DNA from: Candidatus Foliamicus sp.
GTDB taxonomy: Bacteria > Pseudomonadota > Gammaproteobacteria > Steroidobacterales > Foliamicaceae
Assembly (NCBI GenBank): GCA_965206955.1
Contig: OZ242252.1
Location: 1,795,771-1,859,770 of the forward strand
DNA length: 64,000 bases
Reading direction: 5' to 3'
Shown: piece by piece, positions 3,719-63,267 of the stretch
Numbering within the stretch: the stretch's first letter is position 1
How the letters are laid out: each line of letters begins with the position of its first letter
Program-made: the position numbers and the translations under genes
Notes under the pieces: generated by a model
The model's database searches: none
Told to the model about the DNA's origin: nothing
Seen by the model: the letters and a program-made list of their open reading frames with translations, nothing else

Positions 3719-3819
3719 ACGGCCGCCTGAACTGTGGATGAGCCACCTATGGTTCCAGCACAGTCCCGGATGGAGTGAGCTCGTACAGCCCTTTGCGCGC
3801 CAAGGGCGCATAGAATGAA

Positions 3820-15600: not shown

Positions 15601-16964
15601 AAGTCGCGGCTGCGCTTATCGACGCCGGTCTTTCCCCTGAAGAACGTGACCACTCGGGCTATACGCCGCTACATCTGGCAGCCGCCTGGAATAGCGCGGC
15701 CGTTACGGCATTTCTGATTGAGGCGGGCGCCGATCCCGATGCGATAGATGATTACGGGCATACCCCCTTGCACTCTTTGGCCGACAACAACTTCGAGCCT
15801 GACATGCTCGCTACGATTGACGTGCTGCACAAAGTGGGCGCCGATCCAAATACACACGAAGAAATATTCGGATCGACGCCGCTTCATGACGCGGTGAGCC
15901 GGGATTCACGTCCAAGAGGGTTACCTCGCGACGCTGATCCCACAACGATTGAAGCGGAGCGAGCGAAGAACGTGGCATTGCGCCTGGCCCTGGTCGGCGC
16001 GCTCCTCGACATCGGTGCCGATCCCGGCGCCCGGGACGATGCAGGCAATATGCCGCTGCACAAGGCCGCCGAGAAAACGAACGATGAAGCGGTGATTTCA
16101 TCGCTGATTGAAGCTGGCGCTGATATTCAAGTGCTCAACAACCAGGACCAGAGGCCACTCGATCTGGCCGCTGGCGGCAGCGGCAACTCTGCCGTTGTCG
16201 CCGCGCTGCTGGAACGCGGCGCCGACGTGAATGCCGTTGGTCCGGCTGGATCAACCCCGCTGCATCACGCTCTTTCGGGCTCTGCGGACCTTGCGAATGT
16301 TCTCGCGCTTCTGGATGCGGGCGCCGATCCGATGGCCAGGGACCGCATCGGCAATACGCCGCTGCATCGCCTGGTACGCGCCAACAGCCCCGATGTGGTC
16401 TCGGCACTTGTGGACCGTGGCGCCGACCCGAACGCGCGCAATCAGCGTGGCTCCACGCCTCTGCACGGAGTAGCCTCATTGAATAACAATGCTTCCGTTG
16501 TCTCCGCCTTGATCGAAGCGGGCGCGGACCCCCATGTGCGCAATGACTTCAAGTCAACACCTCTGCACTCCGCCGCTCCCAACGTGAATTCCGCCGTAAT
16601 CCGTGTGCTCCTGGATGCCGGCGCCGAGCCGAACGCACTTGAGATTTCCGGCGATGCACCCTTGCACAACGCAGCGTCCCACAACCCGGATCCCGCCGTA
16701 ATCAGCGCACTGATTGCCGCCGGCGCCGATCCCAACGTGTGGGGAAGGGAGAACACTGCACCGCTGCACATTGCGGCCCGATGGGGGCGCTATCCAGCTG
16801 TGATTGGCGCACTGCTGGACGGCGGCGCTGATCCGATGGCGCTCGACGGTGAAGGTGAACTTCCCTATGAGAAGGCCCTGGAGAACGAGCGCCTCGAAGG
16901 AACCGAGGCGCTGCAGCGACTGAAATCCGCCACGTACCCAAAGAGCGCCAGCTCAACCCGATAG
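12648..16964 (+). CDS. Giant secreted ankyrin-repeat protein (1438 aa); two fused ANK units; collinear paralogue of 3820-7884
   Basis: GTG start, hydrophobic N-terminus (GVAVFALLILASSGAALA), Cys-motif modules at 12759 and 14841, and ANK repeats throughout. Confidence 0.88.
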   Translation: MNPTKSRHDCIDRIAGVAVFALLILASSGAALAEKADCHKWSTREFFAEADATKVRECLAAGADPNARDERGTTPLHHVMATSEDLAVGRALIDAGAEISARNNDGHAPLHYAASRAAETSAVSFLLGAGADPNAPNDSGDRPLHWAVRFDSDLAVSAILLDAGADPNARNKLGVTPLHDAVRGENAATLSTTLISAGADPNARDEFGDTPLHWATEKEESGLIQWLISTGADPNARDRWGITPLAAAAYYGNPAATVALLDAGADPDAKDIQGATPLHQVARYSRNPAVIAALLEAGADAAVRDADASTPLHNATAGNHGDMFIMGTGARGDRYRKDGRIIDYWADIMHATKRHSLDPGMLARLLDAGANLEARDENGRTPLIRAAGWNRNATVIVTLLEAGADPGARDDRGNEPLHEAARYGSEAVVLTLLDAGADANVRNEDGETPLHKAAFDSDNPSVIRALVDAGADPNSRDDHGATPLHEAMIPSGNGDIVDALLGHGANPNARDKRGRTPLHIEAWASDETEEVAVLLDAGADPHARDDEGSTPLHGAAWGGRNLKTIARLIEEGADPNAQNKHLTTPLHAAASNSIPSVVAKLLESGADPNARDNQGAVPLHNAAKRNKNPGVIPLLIEAGADPNARDRHGATPLDISLRENGNPAVATALREAGGDLSAKEENGTLAGDNNQGQVSNGDSDQSGQAQSTPPKGKSSLRATDGADTNLDALAACADWNTPEFFLRAEVVQVHDCLDSGADPMARAEREITPLHYAASVSEDAGVFDALLNAGADLHGRSQYGYTPLHFAVWGKVRPVAVAVLLDAGANPKAETEFGATPLHWVAQTHGDVGIASALLEAGADPNAQDREGSAPLHQLVEKGENPALAVALIEAGADPNAKEQTFGDTPLHKAAAKSSIAMINALLDAGADPNARNARRKTPMHRAAGGAGDPAVLATLIAAGAVVGVRDENDMTPLHSAALGNRNPEVAAALIDAGLSPEERDHSGYTPLHLAAAWNSAAVTAFLIEAGADPDAIDDYGHTPLHSLADNNFEPDMLATIDVLHKVGADPNTHEEIFGSTPLHDAVSRDSRPRGLPRDADPTTIEAERAKNVALRLALVGALLDIGADPGARDDAGNMPLHKAAEKTNDEAVISSLIEAGADIQVLNNQDQRPLDLAAGGSGNSAVVAALLERGADVNAVGPAGSTPLHHALSGSADLANVLALLDAGADPMARDRIGNTPLHRLVRANSPDVVSALVDRGADPNARNQRGSTPLHGVASLNNNASVVSALIEAGADPHVRNDFKSTPLHSAAPNVNSAVIRVLLDAGAEPNALEISGDAPLHNAASHNPDPAVISALIAAGADPNVWGRENTAPLHIAARWGRYPAVIGALLDGGADPMALDGEGELPYEKALENERLEGTEALQRLKSATYPKSASSTR

Positions 16965-41899: not shown

Positions 41900-44162
41900 G
41901 CGCGCAAGTTTATCCGGGTTTGTATTCGGCGGACACCCGAATAACATTAGGCGCGACGTGAAACGCAAGGAACGAACCTGGGTGGAGCGCGCGCTGCGCG
42001 AGGGTGGCCTGTGGCTTAGCCTGGGCCTGGGCCTGCTGATGTTCGCAGCCTTGCTCAGCAATGTGCCGGAAGCCGCGTCAGCCGGACTTCCAGGCGGCAA
42101 CCTGGTTGGCTCGGCCGGCACTTGGTTTGCCAACTTCGCGTTCGACCTGGCCGGGCAGGCGTCCTATCTCTTTCCGGCGGCCATAATCGGTTTCAGCGCC
42201 TGGTACCTGGCCCCTGCAAGGGCTCGCGAAGATTGGTCCTGGCCCGACGCCGGGGTACGCGCCGGTGGCCTGGTGCTGGTGGTGGTTTGCGGCTGCGGCC
42301 TGCTGGAGTTGTCGGCCCGCGCGGATCTTGGCGGCGGCATCGTCGGAACCTGGCTCACGGACGCACTGAATCCTGTTCTGGACAGCATGGGCTCCGTCGT
42401 GGTCTTGCTGGCCCTTTGGATGACCGGCGTTACGCTGGTTACCAGCCTTTCCTGGGTGCGGCTGGCGGAAGTCACCGGGCGTTTGACCATGCGAGGCTTC
42501 GCGCTGTTGTGGCGGAGCCTGTGCGCGGGAATCAGAGCGCTGATGTCGCGGTTTGGCGCGGACGATTACCGCAGGCCAACCACTCGACGGCGCGCGAAAA
42601 TCACTCGGCCCGCCAGGAAGAGTCCCGCCGCCGGGCAGGCCCGGCGCGCGCGACAGGAACGCGAGAGCGCGGAGGTGGAACTTCCTTCCGGCGTTCGTCT
42701 GCCCTCGCTCAGCCTGCTTTCGGACCCCCCGCCCGACGCTTCGACGCAGTCGCAGGACTATCTGCGCGCCCAGGCCAAGCGGCTGGAGGAGAAACTCCAG
42801 GAGTTCGGCGTGGGTGTGACGGTAGTCGCAGTATCGCCCGGGCCCGTCGTGACGCTGTTTGAAGTGCAGCCGGCCGCGGGCATCCGCGCCAGCCGGATTA
42901 CCAGCCTTGCGCGAGATTTGTCGCGCTCACTGATGGCGCATAGCGTGCGGGTGGTCGAATCCATGCCGGGCAAGTCAACAGTCGGGCTTGAAATAGCCAA
43001 CAACGAGCGGATGCTGGTCACGCTGGGGGAGATTCTTCGGTCGCGTATCTATGCCAATGCCCAATCGATGCTGACGCTGGGCCTGGGCAAGGACATCGCC
43101 GGCGATCCGGTGGTGGCCGACCTGCTCAAGATGCCGCACCTGCTGGTGGCCGGCGCCACCGGCTCAGGCAAATCGGTGGCGATCAACGCGATGGTCTTGA
43201 GCCTGCTCTACAAGTCAACGCCCGAAACGGTGCGCCTGATCATGATCGATCCCAAGATGCTGGAGCTGTCTGTCTATGAGGGCATTCCACACCTTCTGTG
43301 CCCGGTGGTCACCGACGTTACCCAGGCCGCCAACGCTTTACGTTGGTGCGTAGCCGAGATGGACCGCCGCTACCGCTTGATGTCCTGGGTCAAGACGCGC
43401 AGCGTAGAGGGCTACAACAACCGCTTGCAGGTGGCCCGTGACGCCGGCGCGCCGTTATGCGGACCGCCGGAGAACGACGAGGACGAACAGGGGCCGGTGC
43501 TGGAGCCGCTGCCGCGCATCGTGGTGGTGATCGATGAGCTGGCCGACCTGATGATGGTGGTCGGCAAGAAGCTCGAACACCTGATCGCGCGCCTTACTCA
43601 GAAGGCACGGGCTGCGGGACTGCACCTGATCGTGGCCACCCAACGTCCCTCAGTGGACGTGATTACCGGCCTCATCAAGGCCAATATTCCGGCGCGGATC
43701 GCGTTTCGCGTTTCAGCGCAGGTCGATTCGCGCACCATCCTGGACCAGATGGGCGCCGAAACTCTGCTCGGCAAGGGGGACATGCTCTACCTGGCGTCGG
43801 GTTCCAGTAACCTGACCCGGGTCCACGGCGCATTCGTGGACGACGGGGAAGTGCTGAAAGTGGTCGCCGCCCTGAAACGCACCGGCGGTCCCAGCTACGA
43901 CGAACAAGTCACCCTCGGCCCCGTGGAAACAGACGAGGCCGACGGCGCCGCCGCAGACGGCGGCGAGGTAGACGAACTCTACTCCCAGGCCCGGGAAATC
44001 GTCACCGAAACCGGCCGGGCATCAATCTCCTACGTACAGCGGCGCCTCCGCGTAGGCTACAACCGCGCCGCCCGCCTAATCGAAGAACTCGAACGCGCCG
44101 GCGTAGTCTCCGAACCAGACGGCCGCGGCGAACGCCGCGTCACAATCGGCGGCCCAGAATAA
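41886..44162 (+). CDS. ftsK: DNA translocase FtsK
   Basis: N-terminal TM domain, basic and proline/alanine-rich linker, motor domain with Walker A GATGSGKS, and a C-terminal gamma winged-helix (ISYVQRRLRVGYNRAARLIEELE). The exact start is uncertain (41886-41960). Confidence 0.9.
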   Translation: MEFDMRASLSGFVFGGHPNNIRRDVKRKERTWVERALREGGLWLSLGLGLLMFAALLSNVPEAASAGLPGGNLVGSAGTWFANFAFDLAGQASYLFPAAIIGFSAWYLAPARAREDWSWPDAGVRAGGLVLVVVCGCGLLELSARADLGGGIVGTWLTDALNPVLDSMGSVVVLLALWMTGVTLVTSLSWVRLAEVTGRLTMRGFALLWRSLCAGIRALMSRFGADDYRRPTTRRRAKITRPARKSPAAGQARRARQERESAEVELPSGVRLPSLSLLSDPPPDASTQSQDYLRAQAKRLEEKLQEFGVGVTVVAVSPGPVVTLFEVQPAAGIRASRITSLARDLSRSLMAHSVRVVESMPGKSTVGLEIANNERMLVTLGEILRSRIYANAQSMLTLGLGKDIAGDPVVADLLKMPHLLVAGATGSGKSVAINAMVLSLLYKSTPETVRLIMIDPKMLELSVYEGIPHLLCPVVTDVTQAANALRWCVAEMDRRYRLMSWVKTRSVEGYNNRLQVARDAGAPLCGPPENDEDEQGPVLEPLPRIVVVIDELADLMMVVGKKLEHLIARLTQKARAAGLHLIVATQRPSVDVITGLIKANIPARIAFRVSAQVDSRTILDQMGAETLLGKGDMLYLASGSSNLTRVHGAFVDDGEVLKVVAALKRTGGPSYDEQVTLGPVETDEADGAAADGGEVDELYSQAREIVTETGRASISYVQRRLRVGYNRAARLIEELERAGVVSEPDGRGERRVTIGGPE

Positions 44163-44189
44163 TGCACCCCTCCACACGGCTCCCACCCT

Positions 44190-44343
44190 CCCTGGGAAAG
44201 AGGACTTCCAGCCCTCACCAATACCCACCCCCCCTGGGAAAGAAGGCTTCCAGCCCTCACCAACACCCACCCCCCCTGGGAAAGAGGACTTCCAGCCCTC
44301 ACCAATGCCCACCCCCCCTGGGAACGAGGGCTTCCAGCCCTCG
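44190..44343. repeat. REP-like array, 4 units of about 45 nt (CCCTGGGAAAGAGGACTTCCAGCCCTCACCAA...)
   Basis: Read directly from the sequence; lies between ftsK and lolA. Confidence 0.9.
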
Positions 44344-44365
44344 AACCCCAAAACCACCCCACACC

Positions 44366-45016
44366 CGAAAATGGCTAGCACTAGCCTTCCTGCTCCCCAC
44401 AACCCTAACCCTGGCACAGAACCCCCCACCCGACACTTCCCCCACCGCGCAACAACCCGACGCCAGCACCCTTCTGCAACAATTCTTCTTCGAGATCCAG
44501 CACCTGCAAGCCGACTTCACGCAACTCGAATTCGATGTAGAAGGAGGGTTTCGCCGCCAGAGCACCGGGCGCCTCTACCTCTCCCGCCCCGGCCGCTTTC
44601 GCATCGACTACCTCGAGCCGGACGAAGTGATGATCTGGGCGGACGGAGAAAGCCTTTCGATGTTCGACCCGGAACTGGAACAGGTCACCGTGTGGAAACA
44701 ATCCACTCGGCTCAGAGAATCAGCTGCCGCGCTGTTGGCCGGAGACGCCTCGGTCCTGGAGAACTACCGGGTAAACGTGGCCGAATTCGAGGACGGCCTG
44801 CAATGGTTTGACCTGGCCACCACGACTGCGGAGGAGGGGGACCTGCGCCTGGCTTTGCGGGACAAAGCGCCCGCGATCATCGAGTATTCCGACGAGCTTG
44901 GCAGCCGTGTGCAAATGCAGCTTTTTCGCCTGGACCTCAAGAGCAAGCTCGACGACAAGCTGTTCGATCCCGAGATACCACCCGGCGTAGATATATTCGA
45001 GGCCGTGGAATCGTGA
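44366..45016 (+). CDS. lolA: Outer-membrane lipoprotein carrier protein LolA (start codon unresolved)
   Basis: LolA-like sequence (signal-like [15 protein letters not shown], ...FTQ....G....[37 protein letters not shown]). There is no ATG, GTG or TTG between the REP array and the signal peptide. The only upstream start (44162) reads through the REP array. Confidence 0.75.
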
Positions 45017-46284
45017 TCGATCCCAAGTTATTGCGCGAGCAGCCCGAGGCCGTGGCGAGCGGTCTGACCCGGCGAGGGGCGCCCTTCGATGTGGCTGCCT
45101 ACCGGGAACTGGACGCGAAGCGCAAGACGCTTCAAGTACATTCGGAAAAACTGCGCGCGGAACGCAACCGTCTTTCCAAGCAGATCGGCGCCGCCGCACG
45201 GCAGGGCGCGGACGTCCAGCCGCTCAAGAACCAGGTAGCCGAAGCTGCGCAAGGACTGCCCCAGGCCGAAAACGAACTCAAGACGGTCCAGGAGGACTTG
45301 CGGGAGATTGAACTGGGCCTGCCCAATCTGCTCGACGAGGCCGTCCCAGACGGCGCCGACGAAAGCGCCAATCACGAGATTAAGGCCTGGGGCAAACCGC
45401 GTGCAGCGGGCGATGCTGTTCTTGATCATGTGGCCCTCGGCGAAGCGCTGGGGCAGATGGACTTCGCCGCCGCCGCACGCGTAGCCGGCGCCCGCTACAC
45501 CGTACTGCTGGGCGATCTGGCGCGGCTGCATCGCGCCCTGATCCAGTTCATGCTGGATATGCACCTCAACGAGCACGGCTACACCGAGGCCTACGTGCCT
45601 TACATCGTCAACGCCAAGTCGCTGGTAGGCACCGGCCAACTCCCCAAGTTCGAGGAAGACCTGTTCGCCGTTCAGTCCGAACGGCCGTCCTACCTCGTGC
45701 CCACAGCCGAAGTTCCACTGACCAACCTGGTGGCCGGTCAAATCGTGGACATAGCCAAATTGCCGCTGAAATTCACCGCACACACACCTTGTTTCCGCTC
45801 CGAAGCCGGCTCCTACGGCAAAGACACGCGCGGAATGTTGCGCCAGCACCAGTTCGAAAAGGTGGAACTGGTGCAAATCACCCATCCCGACCAATCAGCC
45901 GCAGCGCTTGAGGAACTTACCGGGCACGCCGAAGCCGTGCTGGAGCGGCTGGAGTTGCCCTATCGCAGGGTCGTCCTTTGCGCCGGCGATACCGGCTTCG
46001 CATCCGCCATGACCTACGATCTCGAAGTCTGGCTGCCCGGACAGAACCGCTACCGCGAAATCTCCTCCTGCAGCAACTGCAGGGACTTCCAGGCCCGGCG
46101 CATGAGCGCCCGCTGGCGCGGCAAGGACTCACGCGGCTTCCTACACACGCTGAACGGCTCCGGCGTAGCCGCCGGCCGCGCCCTGATCGCCGTGCTCGAA
46201 AACTACCAGCAGCCCGACGGCAGCATCGTCATTCCCGAAGCCCTACGCCCCTGGATGGGCGGCGCGGATAGAATCTCAGCCTGA
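45013..46284 (+). CDS. serS: Seryl-tRNA synthetase
   Basis: 423 aa with an N-terminal coiled-coil arm and class II motifs ([25 protein letters not shown] and [21 protein letters not shown]). The GTG start overlaps the lolA stop. Confidence 0.95.
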
Positions 46285-46302
46285 TCTGATCCCTCAATCA
46301 TC

Positions 46303-46389
46303 GGAGAGGTGGCAGAGTGGTCGAATGCGGAGGTCTTGAAAACCTCTGACGGTTTACGCCGTCCGTGGGTTCGAATCCCACCCTCTCCG
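46303..46389 (+). tRNA. tRNA-Ser (anticodon UGA), copy 1
   Basis: Folded by hand. Acceptor stem GGAGAGG/CCTCTCC, anticodon arm GAGGT-CTTGAAA-ACCTC, long variable arm GACGG/CCGTC, and T arm GTGGG-TTCGAAT-CCCAC. Confidence 0.9.
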
Positions 46390-46694
46390 TAATAGGCGTT
46401 CCTAATTTTGGGGCAAAAATGGCGATTCTTCAGCGATCGGTAAGAGAGTGAAGAGAAAGGAATTCAGAGACACTGCTGCCAATAGCGTGCCTGTGCAGCA
46501 AAACAATGAGGTAGAGAATGAAACTCGGGCCTGGTGATTGTGACGGTCTACCCACATCAAGGGTGGCTCGGGTCGAGGGGAACGGTCAGGTGGGCACACA
46601 CTACGAGAAAGCGTCTCCCAACCAAGTACGGAAAATCCATACTTACGCAACGGACTGCAATTGGTCCGACCTTGACTAATGAGAAACCAACCTA

Positions 46695-48996: not shown

Positions 48997-50802
<1,806 letters not shown>

Positions 50803-53020: not shown

Positions 53021-53230
53021 CAAAAGGATGGCCGGCGGCGCCCGTTGCGTGATACAAATAGCGGAGAAAGGGGCCAATACCCAGCGCCGGGCGAAACCCC
53101 AATCGACTGCGCCTTGTGACACTGTGCAAATGTGGGCTCCACTTCTAGTTTCTGCTTTGGGTTGGCATAACCACAAGACAAAATGGAAGGTGGACGTTGT
53201 ACGTACTCCATAAATCGTTATAATTTCCGA

Positions 53231-53509
53231 GTGATCCACAGCTTCCTGGACCGCGATACCCGCCGCCTGTTCGAGGGGCGCCGTGTTTCAGCCTTCCAGC
53301 AGTTTGCTGATCAGGCCAGACGCCGCCTTTTCATCCTTCATATGGCAACGTCGCTTAATGATCTTGCAGGTTTGCGCGGCAATCGGCTGAAGGTGATGAG
53401 AGGAGACAGAACCGGTCAACATAGCATCAGGATCAATGCGCAATGGCGAATCTGTTTTCGCTGGGAACAAGATGGACCACACGATGTTGAAATCGTTGAT
53501 TACCACTAA
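53231..53509 (+). CDS. higB: HigB-like (RelE/ParE superfamily) toxin
   Basis: GTG at 53231. VIHSFLDRDTRRLFEGRRVSAFQ...LNDLAGLRGNRLKVMRGDRTGQHSIRINAQWRICFRWEQDGPHDVEIVDYH fits the HigB plasmid-killer pattern. Confidence 0.8.
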   Translation: MIHSFLDRDTRRLFEGRRVSAFQQFADQARRRLFILHMATSLNDLAGLRGNRLKVMRGDRTGQHSIRINAQWRICFRWEQDGPHDVEIVDYH

Positions 53510-53521
53510 GAGGGCAAAGTT

Positions 53522-53827
53522 ATGAACGTGAGGAATGGTATGCGTCCCATACATCCAGGCGAGATTCTCAAGGACGAACTGGAAGAGCGCGGCCTGTCGG
53601 CCAACGCGCTATCGAAAGCGCTGGGGGTCCCGGCAAACCGTATCACGGCAATTTTGCGCGGGCAGCGGAGCGTGACGGCCGACACGGCTCTGCGGCTCGC
53701 GCGAGTGTTCGGCACCACTCCGCAATTCTGGCTGAACATGCAGCAATCTTACGAACTTCGGCGAGCCGAAATTGAGGCCGGCCGCGAAATCGCCAAATCC
53801 GTAAGACCGTTGCAAACCGCCGCTTAG
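53522..53827 (+). CDS. higA: HigA-family antitoxin (XRE-type HTH)
   Basis: IHPGEILKDELEERGLSANALSKALGVPANRITAILRGQRSVTADTALRLARVFGTTPQFWLNMQ is the canonical HigA HTH. It lies 12 nt downstream of higB. Confidence 0.88.
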   Translation: MNVRNGMRPIHPGEILKDELEERGLSANALSKALGVPANRITAILRGQRSVTADTALRLARVFGTTPQFWLNMQQSYELRRAEIEAGREIAKSVRPLQTAA

Positions 53828-54703: not shown

Positions 54704-55852
54704 TGTAATGTCCCATAAATACATTATATAATAGGGAGCATCTTCACTGACCGGAGTACGCTCATGCCCCGCGGCCGAACCCTCGCCCCCCTCGCCCTCG
54801 GCGAAAACGACAAAGGCCAGTTGCTGACCCTCGCCCATTCCCGCTCCCTCCCCCACGGCATCGTCCGCCGCGCGCAGATCGTTCTGGCCTGCGCCGAAGG
54901 CGAGACGAACGCCTCCATCGCGAAGCGCCTTCGGCTGAGTCAATTCACCGTCGGCAAATGGCGCCGGCGCTTCCTTACGCAGGGCCTTGAAGGATTGCAC
55001 GACGAACTGCGCCCGGGACGTCCCCGCACCCACGAAGACGAACGCGTGGCCGAGGTCATCAACGCGGCGCTGCAATCGCCCCCGGCCAATGCGACCCACT
55101 GGACGGTCCGTTCCATGTCCGAGCACTGCGGCGTCTCCAAAAGCACCGTGGCGCGCTGGTTCGAGTTGTTCGGCGTGCAGCCGCACCGGCAGCGGACCTT
55201 CAAACTGTCCAACGACCCGTTCTTCATCGAGAAAGTGCGCGACATCGTCGGACTGTATCTGAATCCGCCGGATCACGCCGTGGTGCTGTGCGTCGACGAA
55301 AAAAGCCAGATCCAGGCGCTTGAGCGCACCCAGCCGATGCTGCCGATGGGACTGGGCTATGTCGAAGGCGTCACCCACGACTATGTCCGGCATGGAACCA
55401 CCACCTTGTTCGCGGCCCTCGACGTGGCCACCGGTGAAGTGCTCAGCCAATGCAAACCGCGCCACCGGCATCAGGAGTTTCTGGCGTTCCTACGCCACAT
55501 CGACCGCAACGTCCCCAAGACGCTGGACGTGCATCTGGTGGTGGACAACTACGCCACCCACAAACACGCCAAGGTGAAAGCCTGGCTGGCGAGGCGGCCC
55601 CGATACCACATTCATTACACGCCGACCTATGCGTCCTGGCTCAATCAGGTCGAGCGCTGGTTCGGCATCATCACCCAGCGAGCCATCCGCCGCGGCACTT
55701 TTTCCTCGGTCAAACAACTCACCCGCAAGATTGACCGCTTCGTCAACGATTACAACTCCACGAACCGCCCGTTCGTCTGGACCGCCACCGCCGATTCCAT
55801 CCTCGCCAAAGTGGAACGACTAAGTAAACTTATTTGCGGGACAGCACACTAG
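54701..55852 (+). mobile_element. IS630-family insertion sequence flanked by TA
   Basis: Inverted repeats: left GTGTAATGTCCCATAAATA, and reverse complement of the right end GTGTGCTGTCCCGCAAATA. TA is present at both ends. Confidence 0.85.
54764..55852 (+). CDS. IS630-family transposase (362 aa, apparently intact)
   Basis: N-terminal HTH domains plus a DDE region (...[14 protein letters not shown]...[12 protein letters not shown]...[17 protein letters not shown]). Confidence 0.9.
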
Positions 55853-56423
55853 CAGCGGTACATCTCTAAGGTGCAGGCCGGTTGTGCTGGCGCATTTTCG
55901 CGATAGACAAACGGCATCGTCGAAGGAGGCAACGATTTCGCTCATGTTCTTAATCTGTTCGGAGTAGACGCGAAAATAGAAGTCTTCCGGTGACACCTCG
56001 GCATCGCTGAGGGTCGTTGAGTAAATGTCCGGTTCGAACCGGCAGTAGTGGAGCAGCATCCCGAGCAGTTGCCGAAAATCAAGCTGGCCGCCTTGGCGAG
56101 GCTGAACCTGCTCGGACTTGAGGCGCCCTCCGAGTCTTTCGTCGATGCGTCTAGCAAGCACGGCCGTTGTTAGGACGTAGCTTTGGATCTTCTGCATGCG
56201 GAAGTCGGGGAGTTGATCGAGTTCCCGCGCCAAATGTTTGCGGAATAGGTTCAGCCTCATGTGGATTGGGGACTGCGTCTTGCTGTGGGTTGGCGTTCGG
56301 CAGAGGCGCGGCATATCCCTATAGAACAGGTTGATCGCTGTGCCACCCTTAAGCGCAAACGCGTCCTCCGTGGCGATATCCGGCAGGACGCTCAGCAGCA
56401 GCCGAACCTGATCGACATAGCGC

Positions 56424-56431
<8 letters not shown>
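55853..56431 (-). pseudogene. AbiEii N-terminal fragment fused to unrelated sequence, truncated by IS630
   Basis: MDKRYVDQVRLLLSVLPDIATEDAFALKGGTAINLFYRDMPRL matches the AbiEii N-terminus. Similarity is then lost. Confidence 0.5.
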
Positions 56432-56937
<506 letters not shown>

Positions 56938-57364
56938 TGAAATTGCTCGGTCTCGAAGATGCGGTATTCATCCAACGAATTGGCCCTTGCGCTGGCGAGC
57001 CTGCCGCCGCTTCACGGAACTCCGTGTACACGTCCTCTCCCAATCGCAAGGTAACGGACTTCGCCATTTTCGCTTCTCCTGTCGCTGAACTGCGCGGTGC
57101 GGGACTGCCGGTTACCGGTCGCCGTCACCCAATCGGCCTCAGCGATCACAGCGGCCCCTGACATCGAAACACCGGCAGATTTGCACGTACGCCGGATATT
57201 TTAGCGGGTCTCTGCGCGTAGCGCCCCGCTCAAAGGAATCTGCCGCCATAGATGGGTGGCGCGGATACAATTCACGTCTGACGGCCTGATCAGCGGACAA
57301 GCGCTGTCGTTCGGACGATCCCCCGTGCAGGCCAATGCTCCCGCGCGGTCGCCCGGACATCATC

Positions 57365-57451
57365 GGAGAGGTGGCAGAGTGGTCGAATGCGGAGGTCTTG
57401 AAAACCTCTGACGGTTTACGCCGTCCGTGGGTTCGAATCCCACCCTCTCCG
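57365..57451 (+). tRNA. tRNA-Ser (anticodon UGA), copy 2
   Basis: Sequence identical by eye to copy 1 over all 87 nt. The downstream ~40 nt also resemble those after copy 1. Confidence 0.88.
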
Positions 57452-57516
57452 TTTTATAGGCGTTCCGCTTTTTTGGGCAATTGGCAGCAGCTAGAACTTA
57501 AGTGTTGGAGAATCTT

Positions 57517-57951
57517 ATGTTATCCAAAAAAGCAACGATCCTGATTGTCATTGGCTTGTTCTTGATGGCACCAGCGGGGATTTCTTCAATTGACTTTGAG
57601 ACACAGCAATTCATAGATGATTTCCATGGGTATATTTTGCTAGGTATTCAGGAAGAGCAAATTGACGGCGATTGGGAGGGCTGCGAATATGGGGAGTCAG
57701 TTAAATTTCGTTCCGGTGATAGTGTTGTATGCAAGAGTTACGGATACGCCTATGCATACAGCCCTAGTGCTTCAATAATCATGGGAGCAACCTTTTTTCA
57801 GGGCGTGATTCTCTACAAATGCAATTTAATTGTGAACTCCGATTCCTACGATGTAGGTTGCGGAATCAAGGCGCGACAAGCATACGAGCAATGGGCCAAA
57901 CTGCATCTTGGGGAAGGGGGAAAAATTCCTTCTCCTCCCCTGCCTTACTAG
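57517..57951 (+). CDS. Hypothetical small exported protein (AT-rich island)
   Basis: ATG at 57517 with signal-like ATILIVIGLFLMAPAGISS and several Cys. No family was recognised. Confidence 0.5.
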   Translation: MLSKKATILIVIGLFLMAPAGISSIDFETQQFIDDFHGYILLGIQEEQIDGDWEGCEYGESVKFRSGDSVVCKSYGYAYAYSPSASIIMGATFFQGVILYKCNLIVNSDSYDVGCGIKARQAYEQWAKLHLGEGGKIPSPPLPY

Positions 57952-58099
57952 ATATTGAATTGTTCGCAATTACTCAGAAGCGCCAATTTGGTCCGTAACA
58001 ACTCGTTTCTTGTTCATCAATTCTCCTCGTGGCACGGAACGGCAACATCTACCAATAGTGAATAACGAAGTAACCATCGTTCATTCACAGCTATTCTCC

Positions 58100-59185
58100 T
58101 CAGTCCACGAGTGTTAGTTTTGGGTGGCTGGAGCCGATAATCCCACGTGAACGAATGCCGTATGTGACGTCTACTCCAAACGTCAACGACTCCAGATCCG
58201 CTCTGCTGATGCATAGGTCTTTGGCGATGTGGCTCTTTGTTAGTCCCTCGGATCGAAGTATGGCAAACATCTTGGCCAGTACTTGGGATGCTTCATGCCT
58301 CATCGGCTCGGGTTCTTTGCGCCGATATGGTGACATTTCGATGCACATTGAGCGGTATTGCCAATCCGAAAGAACCTTAAGCTTATGAAGTCGATAAGCG
58401 AGGGCCGCAACCGAAACCCCCCAATTCTTTTTTAGGAGAATTAGGCGCGAAAGGGTCACCACTTGACGCACGGCGCTGAGAACGCTTGGAGCAGGCATCA
58501 AGAAGGCTGCAGCAAAGGCGTTTGCTTGCGTTTCTGCGTCTTGCCCAATAGGACCACCATGCTTGTGAAGTACAAGGTGGCCGAGTTCGTGAGCCGCGTC
58601 AAATCGAATTCGCTCGGCAGACTTGCTTTGATCTAGAAACACGAAGGGAGTGTCGTTTCTCCAAAACGAAAACGCATCCACGTTTCGTGTATCACGTGTT
58701 AAGGAATATACACGTACGCCTTTGAGTTCAAGCAGGTGAATTAGGTTCGGAATAGGCTGGTATCCGAACCCCCATTCGGAGCGAACTACCTGCGCAGCCG
58801 CCTCAGGCTCTTCGGGTTGCAACTCAGGAATATCCGGCTTGGGGAGGACGAACTTGCAATCTAGCCAATCATTGAGAGAAAGTGCCAAGGCTCCCGCTCC
58901 CAGCGCGGCGTCCCGCTCGCCTGCCGTCATGCGCGAGAGCGCGCGAAAGCTTACTGAGCGTCTGCTGGGCAAATCCAGGGTTGGGCCGAAAAAGAAGCTA
59001 ACCGGAAAGCGCAATTGTCTTGACAATTTCCGTAGCGTGTCGCCCGAAGGTTCAAACTCGCCCTTTTCGTACGCAGAAACTGTGCGGGGCTGGATGCCTA
59101 CTTGCATAGCAAGCTTTGTCATTGTCATGCCGCGTCGTCGGCGAGCCAACGTCAATCGTTGTGGGTTTACTGCGTCCGAGGTCAT
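58100..59185 (-). CDS. Fused XRE-type HTH / ImmA-IrrE (COG2856) metallopeptidase regulator
   Basis: N-terminal HTH (LTLARRRRGMTMTKLAMQVGIQPRTVSAYEKGEFEPS) and zinc-peptidase motif HELGHLVLH in the central domain. Confidence 0.85.
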   Translation of the reverse strand: MTSDAVNPQRLTLARRRRGMTMTKLAMQVGIQPRTVSAYEKGEFEPSGDTLRKLSRQLRFPVSFFFGPTLDLPSRRSVSFRALSRMTAGERDAALGAGALALSLNDWLDCKFVLPKPDIPELQPEEPEAAAQVVRSEWGFGYQPIPNLIHLLELKGVRVYSLTRDTRNVDAFSFWRNDTPFVFLDQSKSAERIRFDAAHELGHLVLHKHGGPIGQDAETQANAFAAAFLMPAPSVLSAVRQVVTLSRLILLKKNWGVSVAALAYRLHKLKVLSDWQYRSMCIEMSPYRRKEPEPMRHEASQVLAKMFAILRSEGLTKSHIAKDLCISRADLESLTFGVDVTYGIRSRGIIGSSHPKLTLVD

Positions 59186-59835
59186 GCCTTTCTGCGTACA
59201 GGGATATCAATGGGCTGTTTGCGTTCCCCTGGCTGAAATGATGCAAGCTGTTCAATGTCAATAGGTGGAAGGAGTAGCCGTTCCTTCCAACCACTCACTC
59301 GCAAGTTGTTATCGAAGCCTAGTGGGTGCGAAAGTTCCGCTCGTAACTCTTTATTGCTGCGATGAATCAAGAGTAGCCAAGTTGCGCGTTCCCCAAACGT
59401 CGCTGGATCGAGCAGTGGTGGTGTATTCCCGTCAGGAAACCTAAATTCGAATCCCAACTGCCTGTTGTTGGCGGCAAGTGCGTCCATTGTGCGTGGACCC
59501 TTGCTGGATTGTGTCGTCGGAAAGCCCTGGGCAATTCCGGTTCCTTCGTCACCAGTTGCCACAGCGATTGCGATGCGTCCGTCAGGCGAGATAGTAATAC
59601 TGTAGTTTGCCTCATTCTTCGCCTGCCATTTCTCAGGCACCAAACCTAAGCGCAGATGACGTACAGCGACCGCCCATATTGTTAATCCGCGGTACATGCT
59701 TGGATCGAAATCGGTGCAGTTAGACCACGCTTGGTATGCGGCTATAACAGCATTTGTTAGGATTTCTTGGGTAAGCCCTAATTCCCCCAGCCGTCTTGTA
59801 ACTGCTGACTCATCTGAGTGAACTATGGTATCCAT
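59182..59835 (-). CDS. Hypothetical protein (217 aa), cotranscribed upstream of the HTH-ImmA gene
   Basis: Clean ORF with a 4-nt overlap onto the downstream gene. No family was recognised. Confidence 0.6.
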   Translation of the reverse strand: MDTIVHSDESAVTRRLGELGLTQEILTNAVIAAYQAWSNCTDFDPSMYRGLTIWAVAVRHLRLGLVPEKWQAKNEANYSITISPDGRIAIAVATGDEGTGIAQGFPTTQSSKGPRTMDALAANNRQLGFEFRFPDGNTPPLLDPATFGERATWLLLIHRSNKELRAELSHPLGFDNNLRVSGWKERLLLPPIDIEQLASFQPGERKQPIDIPVRRKA

Positions 59836-60181
59836 TCTCGCTCCATGTTGGGAATAGTCGGACTTCCGGTTTTTTTACCACAAATGAGGGCGAAAATCCA
59901 CCTGTGGCTGCTGCCCTCTGGACACACCTCGACGAGATTATCCCGTTCGGACTACGGGGGAGGGGCCAAGTCGGCGAGGCCGATCGCGCCGTTGGCGCGT
60001 GGGCCGTTTGAGTCTAGTCAAATGGGAATCTTGGTCCGGTAGCAATAGCATGGCGGGACAAGAGGACAGTCTTAAGCGAAGATACTAAATGCGGGTGCAC
60101 CTGCGGGTAGGCGTGTAAAATAATGGGCTGAACGGCGGGAAGCCCCATTGAGGAACGGCGACGACTAGGGATTCGGAAAAA

Positions 60182-61039
60182 GTGCCTGTATTCATTAGCT
60201 ACAGTCATGCGGACAAGATCTTGGCGGAAAGCCTCGCTCTGAATCTGGTGCAAGCGAAACAGAATGTTTGGATCGATAGGTGGGAACTTAGCGCTGGAGA
60301 CTCGCTGATTGAAAAGATCGAGGGCGCACTTGGTGGCGCTGATGCGATACTGGTCCTACTCTCGGAGAGTTCGGTTAAATCGGAATGGTGCAGGAAGGAA
60401 CTGCGGACGGGATTGCTTCGAGAGCTTGAGGAGCGAGCGGTCTTGGTGATACCGATTGTGATTGATAACTGTGATATTCCACTATTCTTACGGGAGAAGA
60501 TGTACATCGACTTCCGAGGGGATCGGGACGAGGCGCTGGCATTTCTGTTGAAATCCCTTGCTGGAATCTCTAATCCCGCGCAGGCACGCACTGAGACACC
60601 GAGGTCTCTCGTTGACTGGTCAGTAAGCGGGATCAGCAACGAAGAATTAGATGCAGTTCAATGGACATTTGTCGACCACGATCACGAGCAACAATACGTG
60701 GTTCTGACGGAGGTGCGACTGGTTCCCACTGGTCGTGCGCAGATGGCGTTTGGTCGGGTGCGTAAAATCGAGGAGAGATACGTCTTCGTGGCCAAGTACA
60801 TGGAAAGTCTTCTGCAGTCGGGACGGGATTTGCGCATTCTTATTTCTGATGCCGAGCCTATCGTCAAGTCGTTCACCGTGCCCGATGTCGAATATGACGG
60901 GTGCGCAGAAGTCGTTGTTATCGTGCGGCGGATGGGGCATGACGCTGGAATGGACACGCTTTTGGATATCGAAAGACACTTGCAGGCTGCGGTTAAACAC
61001 ACCTCTCAGACTCTAAGAACAGGGACTCCATGCCCATAG
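60182..61039 (+). CDS. TIR-domain protein with an uncharacterised C-terminal domain
   Basis: N-terminus VFISYSHADK...WIDRWELSAGDSL...ADAILVLLSESSVKSEWCRKEL is a bacterial TIR signature. The C-terminal ~145 aa were not recognised. Confidence 0.8.
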   Translation: MPVFISYSHADKILAESLALNLVQAKQNVWIDRWELSAGDSLIEKIEGALGGADAILVLLSESSVKSEWCRKELRTGLLRELEERAVLVIPIVIDNCDIPLFLREKMYIDFRGDRDEALAFLLKSLAGISNPAQARTETPRSLVDWSVSGISNEELDAVQWTFVDHDHEQQYVVLTEVRLVPTGRAQMAFGRVRKIEERYVFVAKYMESLLQSGRDLRILISDAEPIVKSFTVPDVEYDGCAEVVVIVRRMGHDAGMDTLLDIERHLQAAVKHTSQTLRTGTPCP

Positions 61040-61360
61040 ATGGCAACCTGAGCGCTGTCGGTCGGCTGCCATGTATTGGCCATGCGATTACTTCCATCAA
61101 GCACCTGTTTGTCCTTGACTCTTGGGTCAATTTCTGGAGTCACTATTGCCGTCAATTTCGCCTTCCGCATGGCAACCGAGATTTGCGTGCCATTTTTTCC
61201 CTTATGGCTTGAGAAGGGTCACGGTTGTATCCGGCTGCGAGGGGATTGGTATGTCAAGTTCACCGAGGGCGCAGGAGAGCTGGTCCCGGTCTTTAAGACA
61301 GAGAGATAAGTGTAGGCTTTGCCCTAAGGCGGGGGGACCGCCAAATGGAGCGAAGAAAGA

Positions 61361-61663
61361 GTGAGGAGACCGAGAAGGAACCACAGGCCCCAGTTCAAGG
61401 CGCGAGTGGCGCTGGCGGCAGTGAAGGGCGAGAAGACACTGGCGGAGTTGTCGTCGCAGTTCGACGTGCACCCGAACCAGATCACGCAATGGAAGAGTCA
61501 GCTCCTGGAGCAAGCGGCGTCGGTATTCAACGGCGGGAGATCTCGGACCGAGGAGCCGGTGGATCTGAAGGCTTTGCACGCGAAGATCGGGGAGTTGGCG
61601 CTGGAGAACGATTTTTTAGAAAGCGCGCTCATCAAGGCGGGCATGCTGGGCGCAAAGCGATGA
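61361..61663 (+). CDS. IS3-family transposase OrfA (HTH)
   Basis: [46 protein letters not shown] followed by a leucine-zipper-like end. Confidence 0.85.
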
Positions 61664-62487
61664 TCGATCCGTGTCACAAGCTATCAATCAGCCGACAGGC
61701 GAAGATCCTCGAGATCTCGCGTTCGTCGGTTTACTACACGCCCCGGCCCGTGTCGCCGGCGGACTTAGAACTGATGAAGGCGATCGACCGGCTGCATCTG
61801 GAGGCACCCTATGCCGGGAGCCGGATGAGGAAGAAACTCCTTCGCGCTGAAGGCTTCAAGGTCGGGCGCCGCCATGTCAGGACGCTGATGCGGACGATGG
61901 GCGTCGAGGCCTTGTATCGCAAGAAGAACACGTCGCGCCGACATCCGGGCCACGAAGTCTTTCCGTATCTGCTTAGAGGTCGAACGATCACCGAGGCCAA
62001 TCAAGTCTGGGCGCTCGATATCACGTACATCCCGATGGCCCGCGGCTTCGTCTATTTCGTCGGCGTCATGGACTGGGCGACCCGGAGAATCTTGTCCTGG
62101 CGGCTCTCGACGACGCTGACGACGGACTTTTGTGTCGAGGCGCTGGAAGACGCGATTAGCCGTTATGGGAAGCCTGAGGTCGTCAACACCGACCAGGGCA
62201 GCCAGTTCACGAGTGCGGCGTTCGTCGAACTCGTGCACGGCCACGGAATCTCTCTCAGCATGGACGGCAAGGGGGCTTGGAAGGACAACGTCTTCATCGA
62301 GCGATTTTGGCGGACGCTGAAATACGAGGAAGTCTATTTGCGAGCCTATGAGAGCGTGTTGGCAGCGAGACAATCAATTACCCGGTATCTCGCGTTCTAC
62401 AATGGCCGTCGTCCGCATACCGCGAATGACGACTTAACGCCGGATGCGGCGTACTTTGGCGTGCTGTCGATTAACCAGGTAGCATAA
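61660..62487 (+). CDS. IS3-family transposase OrfB (DDE integrase core)
   Basis: ATG at 61660 overlaps the orfA stop (ATGA), in the -1 frame. Sequence includes ...[31 protein letters not shown]...[11 protein letters not shown]...[14 protein letters not shown]. Confidence 0.85.
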
Positions 62488-62525: not shown

Positions 62526-63167
<642 letters not shown>

Positions 63168-63179
63168 TCCTCGATCATC

Positions 63180-63267
63180 GGAGAGGTGGCAGAGTGGTCG
63201 AATGCGGAGGTCTTGAAAACCTCTGACGGTTTACGCCGTCCGTGGGTTCGAATCCCACCCCCCTTCC
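63180..63267 (+). tRNA. tRNA-Ser(UGA)-like copy 3 with an altered 3' acceptor strand (possible pseudo-tRNA / att scar)
   Basis: Identical to copies 1 and 2 through the T arm. It then reads CCCCTTCCG instead of CCTCTCCG, which cannot fully pair with the 5' GGAGAGG. Confidence 0.6.

Follow-up and report, generated by a model that had tools for sequence, protein, structure and literature searches.

Three neighbouring genes in a genomic island of Candidatus Foliamicus sp. raise the question of whether they form a single defence module for which no name exists, or whether separate modules have come to lie side by side. The window that we analysed is a stretch of 64,000 nucleotides, in which two minus-strand genes, rmrA (58100–59185; 361 aa) and rmrT (59182–59835; 217 aa), lie divergent from a standalone plus-strand gene (60182–61039; 285 aa, GTG start) encoding a TIR domain followed by a C-terminal domain (CTD). 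An earlier note on this DNA had given the three open reading frames, their strands and the 4-nt overlap of the first two, and all three are present and intact exactly as described there. Each has hundreds of full-length homologues and, compared with its orthologue in a closely related locus (L163), a low dN/dS (0.08 for RmrA, 0.28 for RmrT and 0.22 for the TIR protein); on these grounds the three are real genes and not chance reading frames, and each is under purifying selection.

The setting is the tRNA-flanked, AT-rich island with Abi and IS debris that the earlier note had recognised. In particular, a tRNA-Ser(UGA) gene (57364–57452, plus strand; ARAGORN, and 61 bits against the Rfam tRNA model) marks the left boundary. 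ARAGORN places further tRNA-Ser copies at 46302 and 63180, and the first of these (46297–46390) is 100% identical to the boundary gene. On the TIR side the island is bounded by the plus-strand transposase genes of an IS3-family element (61361–62487; orfA, 61361–61663, and orfB, 61660–62487; Pfam HTH_Tnp_1, rve and rve_3). The GC content is 0.52 over 57–61 kb as against approximately 0.61 in the flanks, and fragments of AbiEii/AbiEi as well as IS630 and IS3 elements lie close to the three genes.

The rmrT–rmrA pair

The 217-aa protein, which had been considered unassignable, aligns from end to end with the PADLOC RmrT profile PDLC03935 (E=3e-56; aa 1–216 on profile positions 1–206 of 207). The product of the gene downstream of it matches 14 PADLOC RmrA profiles, among them PDLC03949 (E=2.4e-146; aa 6–341 on positions 2–339 of 363), together with phrog_2439 (E=1.9e-95). 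As had been read from the sequence, RmrA is a fusion of an XRE-type HTH (Pfam HTH_3, aa 14–63, E=2.3e-12; nt 58997–59146) and an M78/ImmA-IrrE Zn-peptidase (Peptidase_M78, aa 155–267, E=1.5e-21; nt 58385–58723) whose HExxH motif is intact as HELGH (aa 199–203; nt 58577–58591). The two reading frames overlap by 4 nt (ATGA), and in all 77 informative loci from a sample of 80 RmrT loci the gene immediately following rmrT on its strand is rmrA, the other three being at contig ends. Upstream of rmrT, a block at 59851–59902 on the minus strand (...CATTTGTGGTAAAAAAACCGGAAG...), a candidate rmrTA promoter/operator, is conserved in 8 RmrT loci, 5 of which have no TIR gene. A profile search returned 337 RmrT homologues, and the family is found on 31 plasmids. 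The full-length matches of both proteins, the ATGA overlap, the HELGH motif, the 77/77 pairing and the conserved upstream block thus identify rmrT–rmrA, by family membership, as a RosmerTA toxin–antitoxin defence system. (L171, the locus of one very close relative, has a broken rmrT reading frame.)

If the pair behaves as published Rosmer work would suggest, RmrA would neutralise RmrT and, by way of its HTH, would probably autorepress rmrTA; a phage cue or a stress signal would cause RmrA to be inactivated or consumed, and the freed RmrT would then arrest or kill the cell, as in abortive infection. The geometry of the operon, with its ATGA overlap, is one of translational coupling.

RmrT is predicted to be a soluble alpha/beta protein, modelled with confidence by AlphaFold (pLDDT 88, pTM 0.84). 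RmrT has no match in Pfam, NCBIfam or PHROG, the RmrT alignment, used as a profile against the PDB, had no match, a weak-match Pfam scan of all 52 RmrT members gave only scattered single matches, and Foldseek returned nothing significant for the model, with no match at E<0.009. There is no transmembrane segment (maximum KD19 of 0.86). With no Pfam match and no hydrophobic segment, assignment of RmrT as an Xre-RES, DarT or membrane toxin was rejected. Foldseek did report weak, non-significant resemblances to PD-(D/E)xK, Hjc, Cas4 and splicing-endonuclease folds (probability 0.1–0.6), and the conserved residues of RmrT map uncleanly onto the canonical PD-(D/E)xK motif; the resemblance of the model to PD-(D/E)xK/Hjc-type nucleases is at most a weak lead. 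Because the fold is confidently predicted and is without a significant structural match, this RmrT subfamily (the PDLC03935 type) may embody a toxin mechanism that is new to Rosmer.

The TIR gene and its C-terminal domain

The N-terminal bacterial TIR domain proposed in the earlier note is borne out by Pfam (TIR_2, aa 3–121, E=2.3e-29; nt 60188–60544), and the GTG start is confirmed by the N-terminus that the family shares, MP[IV]FISY. All of 31 homologues have Glu at the position of E73, which aligns with the Glu of the AbTir motif WTNYEL; we take this position to be that of the catalytic Glu of TIR enzymes. The TIR domain is genuine and looks catalytically competent. A Foldseek search with the full-length model recovered the NADase TIRs AbTir, SPARTA and Cat1, and its matches were confined to the TIR domain.

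The remainder of the protein is an alpha/beta domain of approximately 160 aa (about nt 60581–61012) with the motif RRxGxDxGxD, which had been called unrecognised and indeed has no Pfam match. Weak-match Pfam scans of 24 CTDs gave scattered single matches only, and neither profile searches nor Foldseek searches with the full model found a PDB chain that matches the CTD. Structure prediction, a check that the earlier note had proposed, yielded confident models for both this domain (pLDDT of approximately 90) and RmrT, and a significant structural relative for neither. An exhaustive HMMER search with the CTD recovered 44 representatives; the 10 shorter matches that were scanned against Pfam comprised 5 truncated TIR fragments and 5 proteins without a Pfam domain, and no alternative domain fusion was seen among them. 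The CTD is nearly exclusive to a family of TIR proteins of approximately 285 aa, which occurs in at least 198 species-level genomes. PADLOC, which the earlier note had suggested running, identifies the RosmerTA pair and gives only partial matches for the TIR protein; no PADLOC model covers the TIR–CTD family at full length. The claim that the three-gene combination could not be named failed for two of the genes, which are a RosmerTA pair; the TIR family has no assigned system.

The gene has no conserved neighbour, with any one neighbour family occurring in at most 5 of 80 TIR loci; the neighbours are a mixture of defence, mobile-element and housekeeping genes, and include Mokosh, PDC-S11, REases, PD-T4-6, integrases and transposases. 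On the model of SpbK and of the single-protein TIR systems of Wang et al. 2024, the CTD might sense a phage component or drive oligomerisation, upon which clustered TIR domains would hydrolyse NAD+, leading either to NAD+ depletion or to production of a signal. This analogy and the genomic context suggest a role for the family in defence. Possible, though somewhat less likely than not, is a reading in which the TIR–CTD family would be a single-gene anti-phage system that has so far gone unrecognised and the CTD a new phage-sensing or oligomerisation module, with the RmrT subfamily perhaps holding an undescribed toxin mechanism of its own.

An alternative that we consider unlikely casts the TIR protein as an orphan ThsB-like generator, whose cADPR-type or related nucleotide signal would act on an unlinked effector elsewhere rather than depleting NAD+. 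Bacterial TIRs can produce signals, the protein scores 27.4 bits against Pfam ThsB_TIR (just over the cutoff of 21.2, and for aa 4–91 only), and PADLOC ThsB profiles partially match the TIR domain; however, the ThsB matches span the generic TIR core alone (aa 3–98), no ThsA-like gene (SIR2/SLOG or Macro) lies in the island or within 10 kb, and the 80 TIR loci are without a conserved partner. It is similarly unlikely that neither module takes part in phage defence, in which case rmrTA would be an addiction module lending stability to the island, and the TIR protein would have a non-immune function, for example in NAD metabolism or host interaction. Type II toxin–antitoxin modules are often stabilisers, and the broken rmrT frame in L171 would fit this reading. 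In addition, the pneumococcal Rosmer pair RipAB feeds competence and not phage defence (PMC12795458), and most of the E. coli TIR candidates that were tested gave no defence, with only approximately 37% of them being protective (Wang et al. 2024, PMC11350192). Against this, RosmerTA systems have been validated as anti-phage (10.1101/2022.05.11.491447; PMC10440598), and members of both families recur in the company of defence and mobile genes.

One module or two

If the three genes made up one system, they should be found together in other genomes, as the earlier note had itself reasoned in calling for a check of gene neighbourhoods. In samples of 80 loci for each family, examined over 10 kb to either side, neither RmrA nor RmrT was found near the gene in any of the 80 TIR-family loci, and the TIR gene was found in none of the 80 RmrT loci. 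TIR homologues at approximately 70% identity are without Rosmer, and RmrT homologues at approximately 65% identity are without TIR. Outside the window, the divergent trio was seen in just two loci, those of the very close relatives L171 (96% DNA identity) and L163 (90%). In L163 a different sequence flanks the TIR side, so that the three genes have stayed together or been transferred as a block on at least one occasion. A third locus, L170, contains the TIR gene and the 140 nt upstream of it at 90% DNA identity and has no homologue of this RmrTA pair.

The 346-nt intergenic region divides along the same line. DNA homology to L163 on the rmrT side reaches 59897, within the rmrT-proximal block, and the junction DNA that follows (59903–60041) is common to the window and L171 only, being absent from L170 and L163 and appearing as an alignment gap against the latter. 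The TIR-proximal region (60042–60181, plus strand; 140 nt), a candidate promoter of the TIR gene's own, travels with that gene and is approximately 90% identical in L170, whose homology begins at 60042; homology to L163 on this side begins at 60078 and ends at 61082, and that to L171 ends at 61087. (The insert at 59903–60077 was rejected as a small RNA or a repeat element, as it has no Rfam match and is unique in the window; a consensus promoter scan of the intergenic region gave nothing useful.)

Taken together, the failure of the two families to co-occur in either sample, the lack of any neighbour family present in over 5 of 80 TIR loci, the TIR gene of L170, the separate homologues and the contrast in plasmid carriage (31 plasmids for the RmrT family, none for the full-length TIR family) argue for independence. 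We consider it likely that the locus comprises two functionally independent defence-type modules, a RosmerTA pair and a single-gene TIR module (60042–61087, plus strand), which sit back to back in a tRNA-Ser hotspot through recent accretion of the island and do not form a three-gene system.

The reading in which RmrA would be a CapH/CapP-like stress switch that also de-represses the TIR gene, giving one sensor with two effectors (TIR and RmrT), is highly improbable: the shared divergent intergenic region has the geometry expected of a CapH/CapP-type regulator, the trio is kept in the window, L171 and L163, and RmrA weakly resembles capP (E=1e-17) and capH (E=9e-6) at the level of its domains, but its RmrA profile score is approximately eight times its capP score, the upstream element of rmrTA is self-contained and present in loci without TIR, the middle of the intergenic region is unconserved even between trio-bearing loci, and neither L170 nor the co-occurrence samples show the association. 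Some cross-talk between the modules in this lineage is conceivable on the genomic data.

With the two modules read as independent, what appeared to be an unnamed three-gene system becomes a RosmerTA pair, which present defence-finder tools would call, and an independent TIR gene, and the case warns against over-reading adjacency inside defence islands. The modest leads that it leaves are a widespread family of TIR proteins with an unassigned domain and a Rosmer toxin subfamily of unassigned fold and target, either of which could add a new sensor domain or toxin activity to the defence catalogue.

Comparison with known systems

CapH and CapP, to which the earlier note had likened the regulator, are distinct proteins, both of them linked to the CBASS or other defence operon that they regulate. 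RmrA likewise has an HTH and an M78-type peptidase and is divergent beside a defence gene. However, HTH and peptidase are fused in one 361-aa protein, the RmrA profile gives 485 bits for the protein compared with 62 for capP and 25 for capH, and the family is unlinked to that of the TIR gene. RmrA is also always found with RmrT upstream (77/77), which makes it an antitoxin of its own operon and not a dedicated switch for TIR.

SPARTA (short pAgo with TIR-APAZ) can be set aside for the TIR gene, since the top Foldseek matches superpose the TIR domain only (TMq 0.37, rmsd of approximately 26 Å) and no Argonaute gene lies near it; PADLOC Aga_TIR matches cover aa 3–139 only. To ThsB of Thoeris the TIR protein has weak and partial similarity (Pfam ThsB_TIR and PADLOC ThsB), and the locus differs from Thoeris in having no ThsA effector (SIR2/SLOG or Macro/TM) in the island or within 10 kb on either side. 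[quoted passage not shown] 2024, PMC11350192) and SpbK of ICEBs1, which becomes active on directly recognising a phage protein, its TIR domains being clustered by that protein (PMC12847820). These are single polypeptides with a TIR NADase domain, with or without a non-TIR domain, that are borne on mobile elements and have no partner gene (PMC12847820, PMC11350192). The TIR gene of the window similarly retains the candidate catalytic Glu and stands alone in variable mobile and defence contexts. The order of the domains is the opposite of that in SpbK, in which the sensor is N-terminal whereas the non-TIR domain here is C-terminal. SpbK is absent from the matches of the TIR protein, and no sequence relationship outside the TIR core was detected among the PDB chains searched.

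The rmrTA pair can be set beside described Rosmer systems. In RipAB (Spr1630/Spr1629) of Streptococcus pneumoniae, which is of Rosmer type, the antitoxin has an XRE HTH and an ImmA-like domain, the toxin RipA targets DnaN, and control of the pair is ClpX-dependent (PMC12795458). RmrA matches the NCBIfam model antitox_spr1629 (E=7e-36), and because its 124 bits lie far under the equivalog cutoff of 335 it is not an orthologue. The RmrTA system of Gordonia phage Kita, which defends against phages, also places an ImmA-type protease antitoxin beside an unrelated toxin, as does the pair in the window, and RmrA proteins partner with many toxin families (Ernits et al. 2023, PMC10440598). In Kita the C-terminus of the toxin is directed to the membrane, which the toxin depolarises (PMC10440598), whereas RmrT of the window belongs to another family and is predicted to be soluble and without transmembrane helices, so that depolarisation of the Kita kind is unlikely. 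RosmerTA as originally described is an anti-phage operon of two genes, the toxin upstream and the antitoxin, with HTH and Zn-peptidase, downstream, in which deletion of rmrA was unobtainable, consistent with its role as antitoxin (Millman et al. 2022, bioRxiv 10.1101/2022.05.11.491447). The pair in the window differs in that its RmrT, of the PDLC03935-type subfamily, is without an assigned fold or activity, and it shares with the described system the order of its genes and, for both proteins, full-length matches to Rosmer profiles.

The three genes and the RosmerTA operon

ORF calling recovered all three genes at the positions given in the earlier note: rmrA (58100–59185, minus strand, 361 aa), rmrT (59182–59835, minus strand, 217 aa) and the TIR gene (60182–61039, plus strand, 285 aa, GTG start). 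The reported overlap of the two minus-strand genes is visible as ATGA, and Pfam bore out both the fused architecture of the 361-aa protein (HTH_3 at aa 14–63 and Peptidase_M78 at aa 155–267, with the HELGH motif at aa 199–203) and the N-terminal TIR domain of the 285-aa protein (TIR_2 at aa 3–121, E=2.3e-29), whose C-terminal domain, described as unrecognized, comprises ~160 aa with no Pfam match. Each of the three proteins has many full-length homologues, and dN/dS relative to the orthologues in L163, a retrieved locus, was 0.08 for RmrA, 0.28 for RmrT and 0.22 for the TIR protein; all three genes are under purifying selection.

The 217-aa protein had been considered unassignable, and the gene combination had been said to match no nameable system. 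The Pfam scan returned no match for the 217-aa protein, but the PADLOC run that the note had proposed called the operon RosmerTA, a toxin (RmrT)–antitoxin (RmrA) defense system, and matched the TIR protein over its TIR core alone. In particular, the 361-aa protein matched the RmrA profile PDLC03949 over essentially its full length (E=2.4e-146; 14 RmrA profiles matched), and the 217-aa protein matched the RmrT profile PDLC03935 (E=3e-56; aa 1–216 against profile positions 1–206/207). Judged by these profiles, the minus-strand operon belongs to the known RosmerTA family, described by Millman et al. 2022 (bioRxiv 10.1101/2022.05.11.491447). Many unrelated RmrT toxins partner RmrA-type ImmA-protease antitoxins, and a phage-encoded RmrTA pair has been validated (Ernits et al. 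2023, PMC10440598); in RipAB, the pneumococcal Rosmer pair, the toxin targets the sliding clamp (PMC12795458). RefSeq labels such plasmid pairs "hypothetical protein" and "XRE family transcriptional regulator".

Among 80 metagenomic loci with relatives of the window RmrT, 77 contained an RmrA homologue, in every case (77/77) on the same strand and immediately 3' of rmrT; in the other three the contig ends at or just past RmrT. Directly 5' of rmrT, a ~45-nt block (window about 59851–59902) is kept across relatives. Because this block is also present in five loci that lack a TIR gene, it is a candidate regulatory region belonging to the operon itself. In L171, a closely related locus whose rmrA and TIR genes are intact, the rmrT frame is disrupted near codon 180 (L171 7118–7775); this reflects either a decaying toxin gene or an indel introduced by the long-read assembly.

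Linkage of the TIR gene to the Rosmer pair

The earlier note proposed the three genes as one candidate defense module. The genes are indeed of defense type, and the same divergent trio is present in L171 (96% identity across window 57458–61087, the same island) and in L163 (about 90% identity). Nevertheless, a single system made up of rmrA, rmrT and the TIR gene is very improbable, given the outcome of a linkage test performed both ways: homologues of RmrA or RmrT were absent within 10 kb in all 80 TIR-family loci, and the TIR protein was absent from all 80 RmrT loci. Nor was linkage seen in any close homologue examined, whether of the TIR protein (about 70% identity) or of RmrT (about 65% identity). 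Moreover, L170, which matches window 60042–61042 (the TIR gene plus 140 nt upstream) at 90% identity in different surroundings, has no copy of the window RmrTA pair near its TIR gene; its nearest HTH-M78 gene lies 2 kb away, with 27% identity to RmrA. Finally, the middle of the intergenic region (59903–60041) is unconserved even between loci that carry the trio, and homology to L163 is confined to window 58107–59897 and 60078–61082. From the linkage test, the comparison of close relatives and this unconserved stretch, we conclude that the window probably holds two self-contained cassettes, recently joined in its lineage.

No other partner emerged for the TIR gene. When all ORFs within 4 kb were clustered, no neighbor family recurred in more than 5 of the 80 loci, and PADLOC and Pfam, applied to the four ORFs closest to it in 37 loci, found no repeat partner gene. 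The neighbors in these 37 loci were heterogeneous, including Mokosh, PDC-S11, PDC-S66, restriction enzymes, PD-T4-6, ThsB, a caspase, integrases and transposases, as well as a terminase and enzymes of housekeeping type.

Several further features of these loci were observed. The GC-rich divergent intergenic segment at 59903–60077 (about 175–190 nt) is present in L171 and missing from L163, and it has neither an Rfam family nor a second copy in the window. Upstream of the TIR gene in L170 (2595–7691), a 359-aa HTH and Peptidase_M78 gene sits between unassigned genes of 687 aa and 372 aa, possibly a Rosmer-like variant that uses another toxin. NADase-type genes lie beside the TIR gene in L163, where a SIR2_2 gene and then a HerA-like (DUF87) ATPase gene directly follow its 3' end (3550–6655), and in L171, which encodes a 1048-aa SIR2_2 protein 3.9 kb away (12879–16025); the window has an IS3 element on that side.

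The tRNA-Ser island and its flanks

The tRNA-flanked, AT-rich setting described previously was confirmed, with tRNA-Ser(UGA) at 57364–57452 and a GC content of 0.52 in the trio region vs about 0.61 in the flanks. Copies and fragments of serS/tRNA-Ser occur at 45013–46390, 49275–49669 (a serS fragment), 56710–56846, 57359–57452 and 62555–63267. Two of the three tRNA-Ser(UGA) copies are 100% identical and the third deviates at its 3' end. Intact serS precedes the first copy and a 3' serS fragment precedes each of the other two, an arrangement that suggests that several islands accreted in tandem at one serS/tRNA-Ser hotspot. In L171 the Rosmer/TIR island adjoins intact serS/tRNA-Ser, beginning about 1.5 kb past it, and ~11 kb corresponding to window 46.4–57.4 kb is absent.

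The Abi and IS debris noted near the trio is likewise present, as fragmented AbiEii/AbiEi genes near 53183–53827 and 55820–56641, interrupted by an IS630-family transposase (54764–55852). In the same region, a 108-aa ORF that is toxin-like by eye and has no family match precedes a 101-aa protein with an HTH_3 match, a possible HigB/HigA-type toxin–antitoxin pair. Between tRNA-Ser and rmrA, a 149-aa ORF (57502–57951) with a hydrophobic N-terminal segment, possibly a signal peptide, had no family match in Pfam, PADLOC or further profile scans; L171 retains it along with the island (98%), and the ~220 nt of L163 between rmrA and the contig end show no homology to it. A 42-nt tandem repeat (44182–44342; 3 or more copies, 92–95% identical) within a lolA-like ORF (44162–45016) accounts for a longer coding region in the window genome (284 aa vs 234 aa in L171). 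L161, the ENA copy of the window contig, is 145 nt longer in a repeat-rich stretch before tRNA-Ser (between about 55.85 and 57.5 kb), which may be an assembly difference between the two deposited versions. Beyond the end of the window, at a distance of about 4.9 kb from the TIR gene, L161 carries a Multi_ubiq and Prok-E2_E gene (14893–15570); these domains belong to ubiquitin-like conjugation of a type found in some defense systems.

The TIR protein

The TIR family is well conserved (about 281–290 aa), with 199 protein-database matches, and at least 198 loci were confirmed in GTDB species representatives; PADLOC has no full-length model for it. Within the motif SEWCxKEL, E73 does not vary among 31 homologues and aligns with the glutamate of AbTir "WTNYEL", a position that we take to be the catalytic site of TIR NADases. 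Structure prediction for the C-terminal domain, as the earlier note had suggested, yielded a confident alpha/beta fold (aa ~134–277; AlphaFold pLDDT about 90, 78 overall) but no PDB match: Foldseek with the full model found SPARTA TIR-APAZ, Cat1, AbTir, PdTIR and BtTir through the TIR domain only. This C-terminal domain, in which R136 and D145 are invariant and which carries the motif RRxGxDxGxD, has no sequence relative in Pfam or PDB. When 1.84 billion representatives were searched exhaustively, the domain turned up in full-length TIR fusions and in shorter ORFs; among 10 of the latter that were put through a Pfam scan, 5 were truncated TIR fragments and the other 5 had no Pfam domain. The remaining value of the locus lies in this domain and in the activity of RmrT, both without assignment.

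The TIR gene is independent and, as a single-protein TIR gene, an uncharacterized representative of a known class. Among the E. coli TIR candidates that were tested, defense was seen for only 37.5%, and TIR-II, -V, -VI and -IX are, like the window protein, single proteins (Wang et al. 2024, PMC11350192). SpbK switches on NADase activity through a non-TIR domain that docks on a phage portal protein and gathers the TIR domains into clusters (PMC12847820). By analogy, we infer that the single-protein TIR defense systems would offer the best functional parallel for the window protein.
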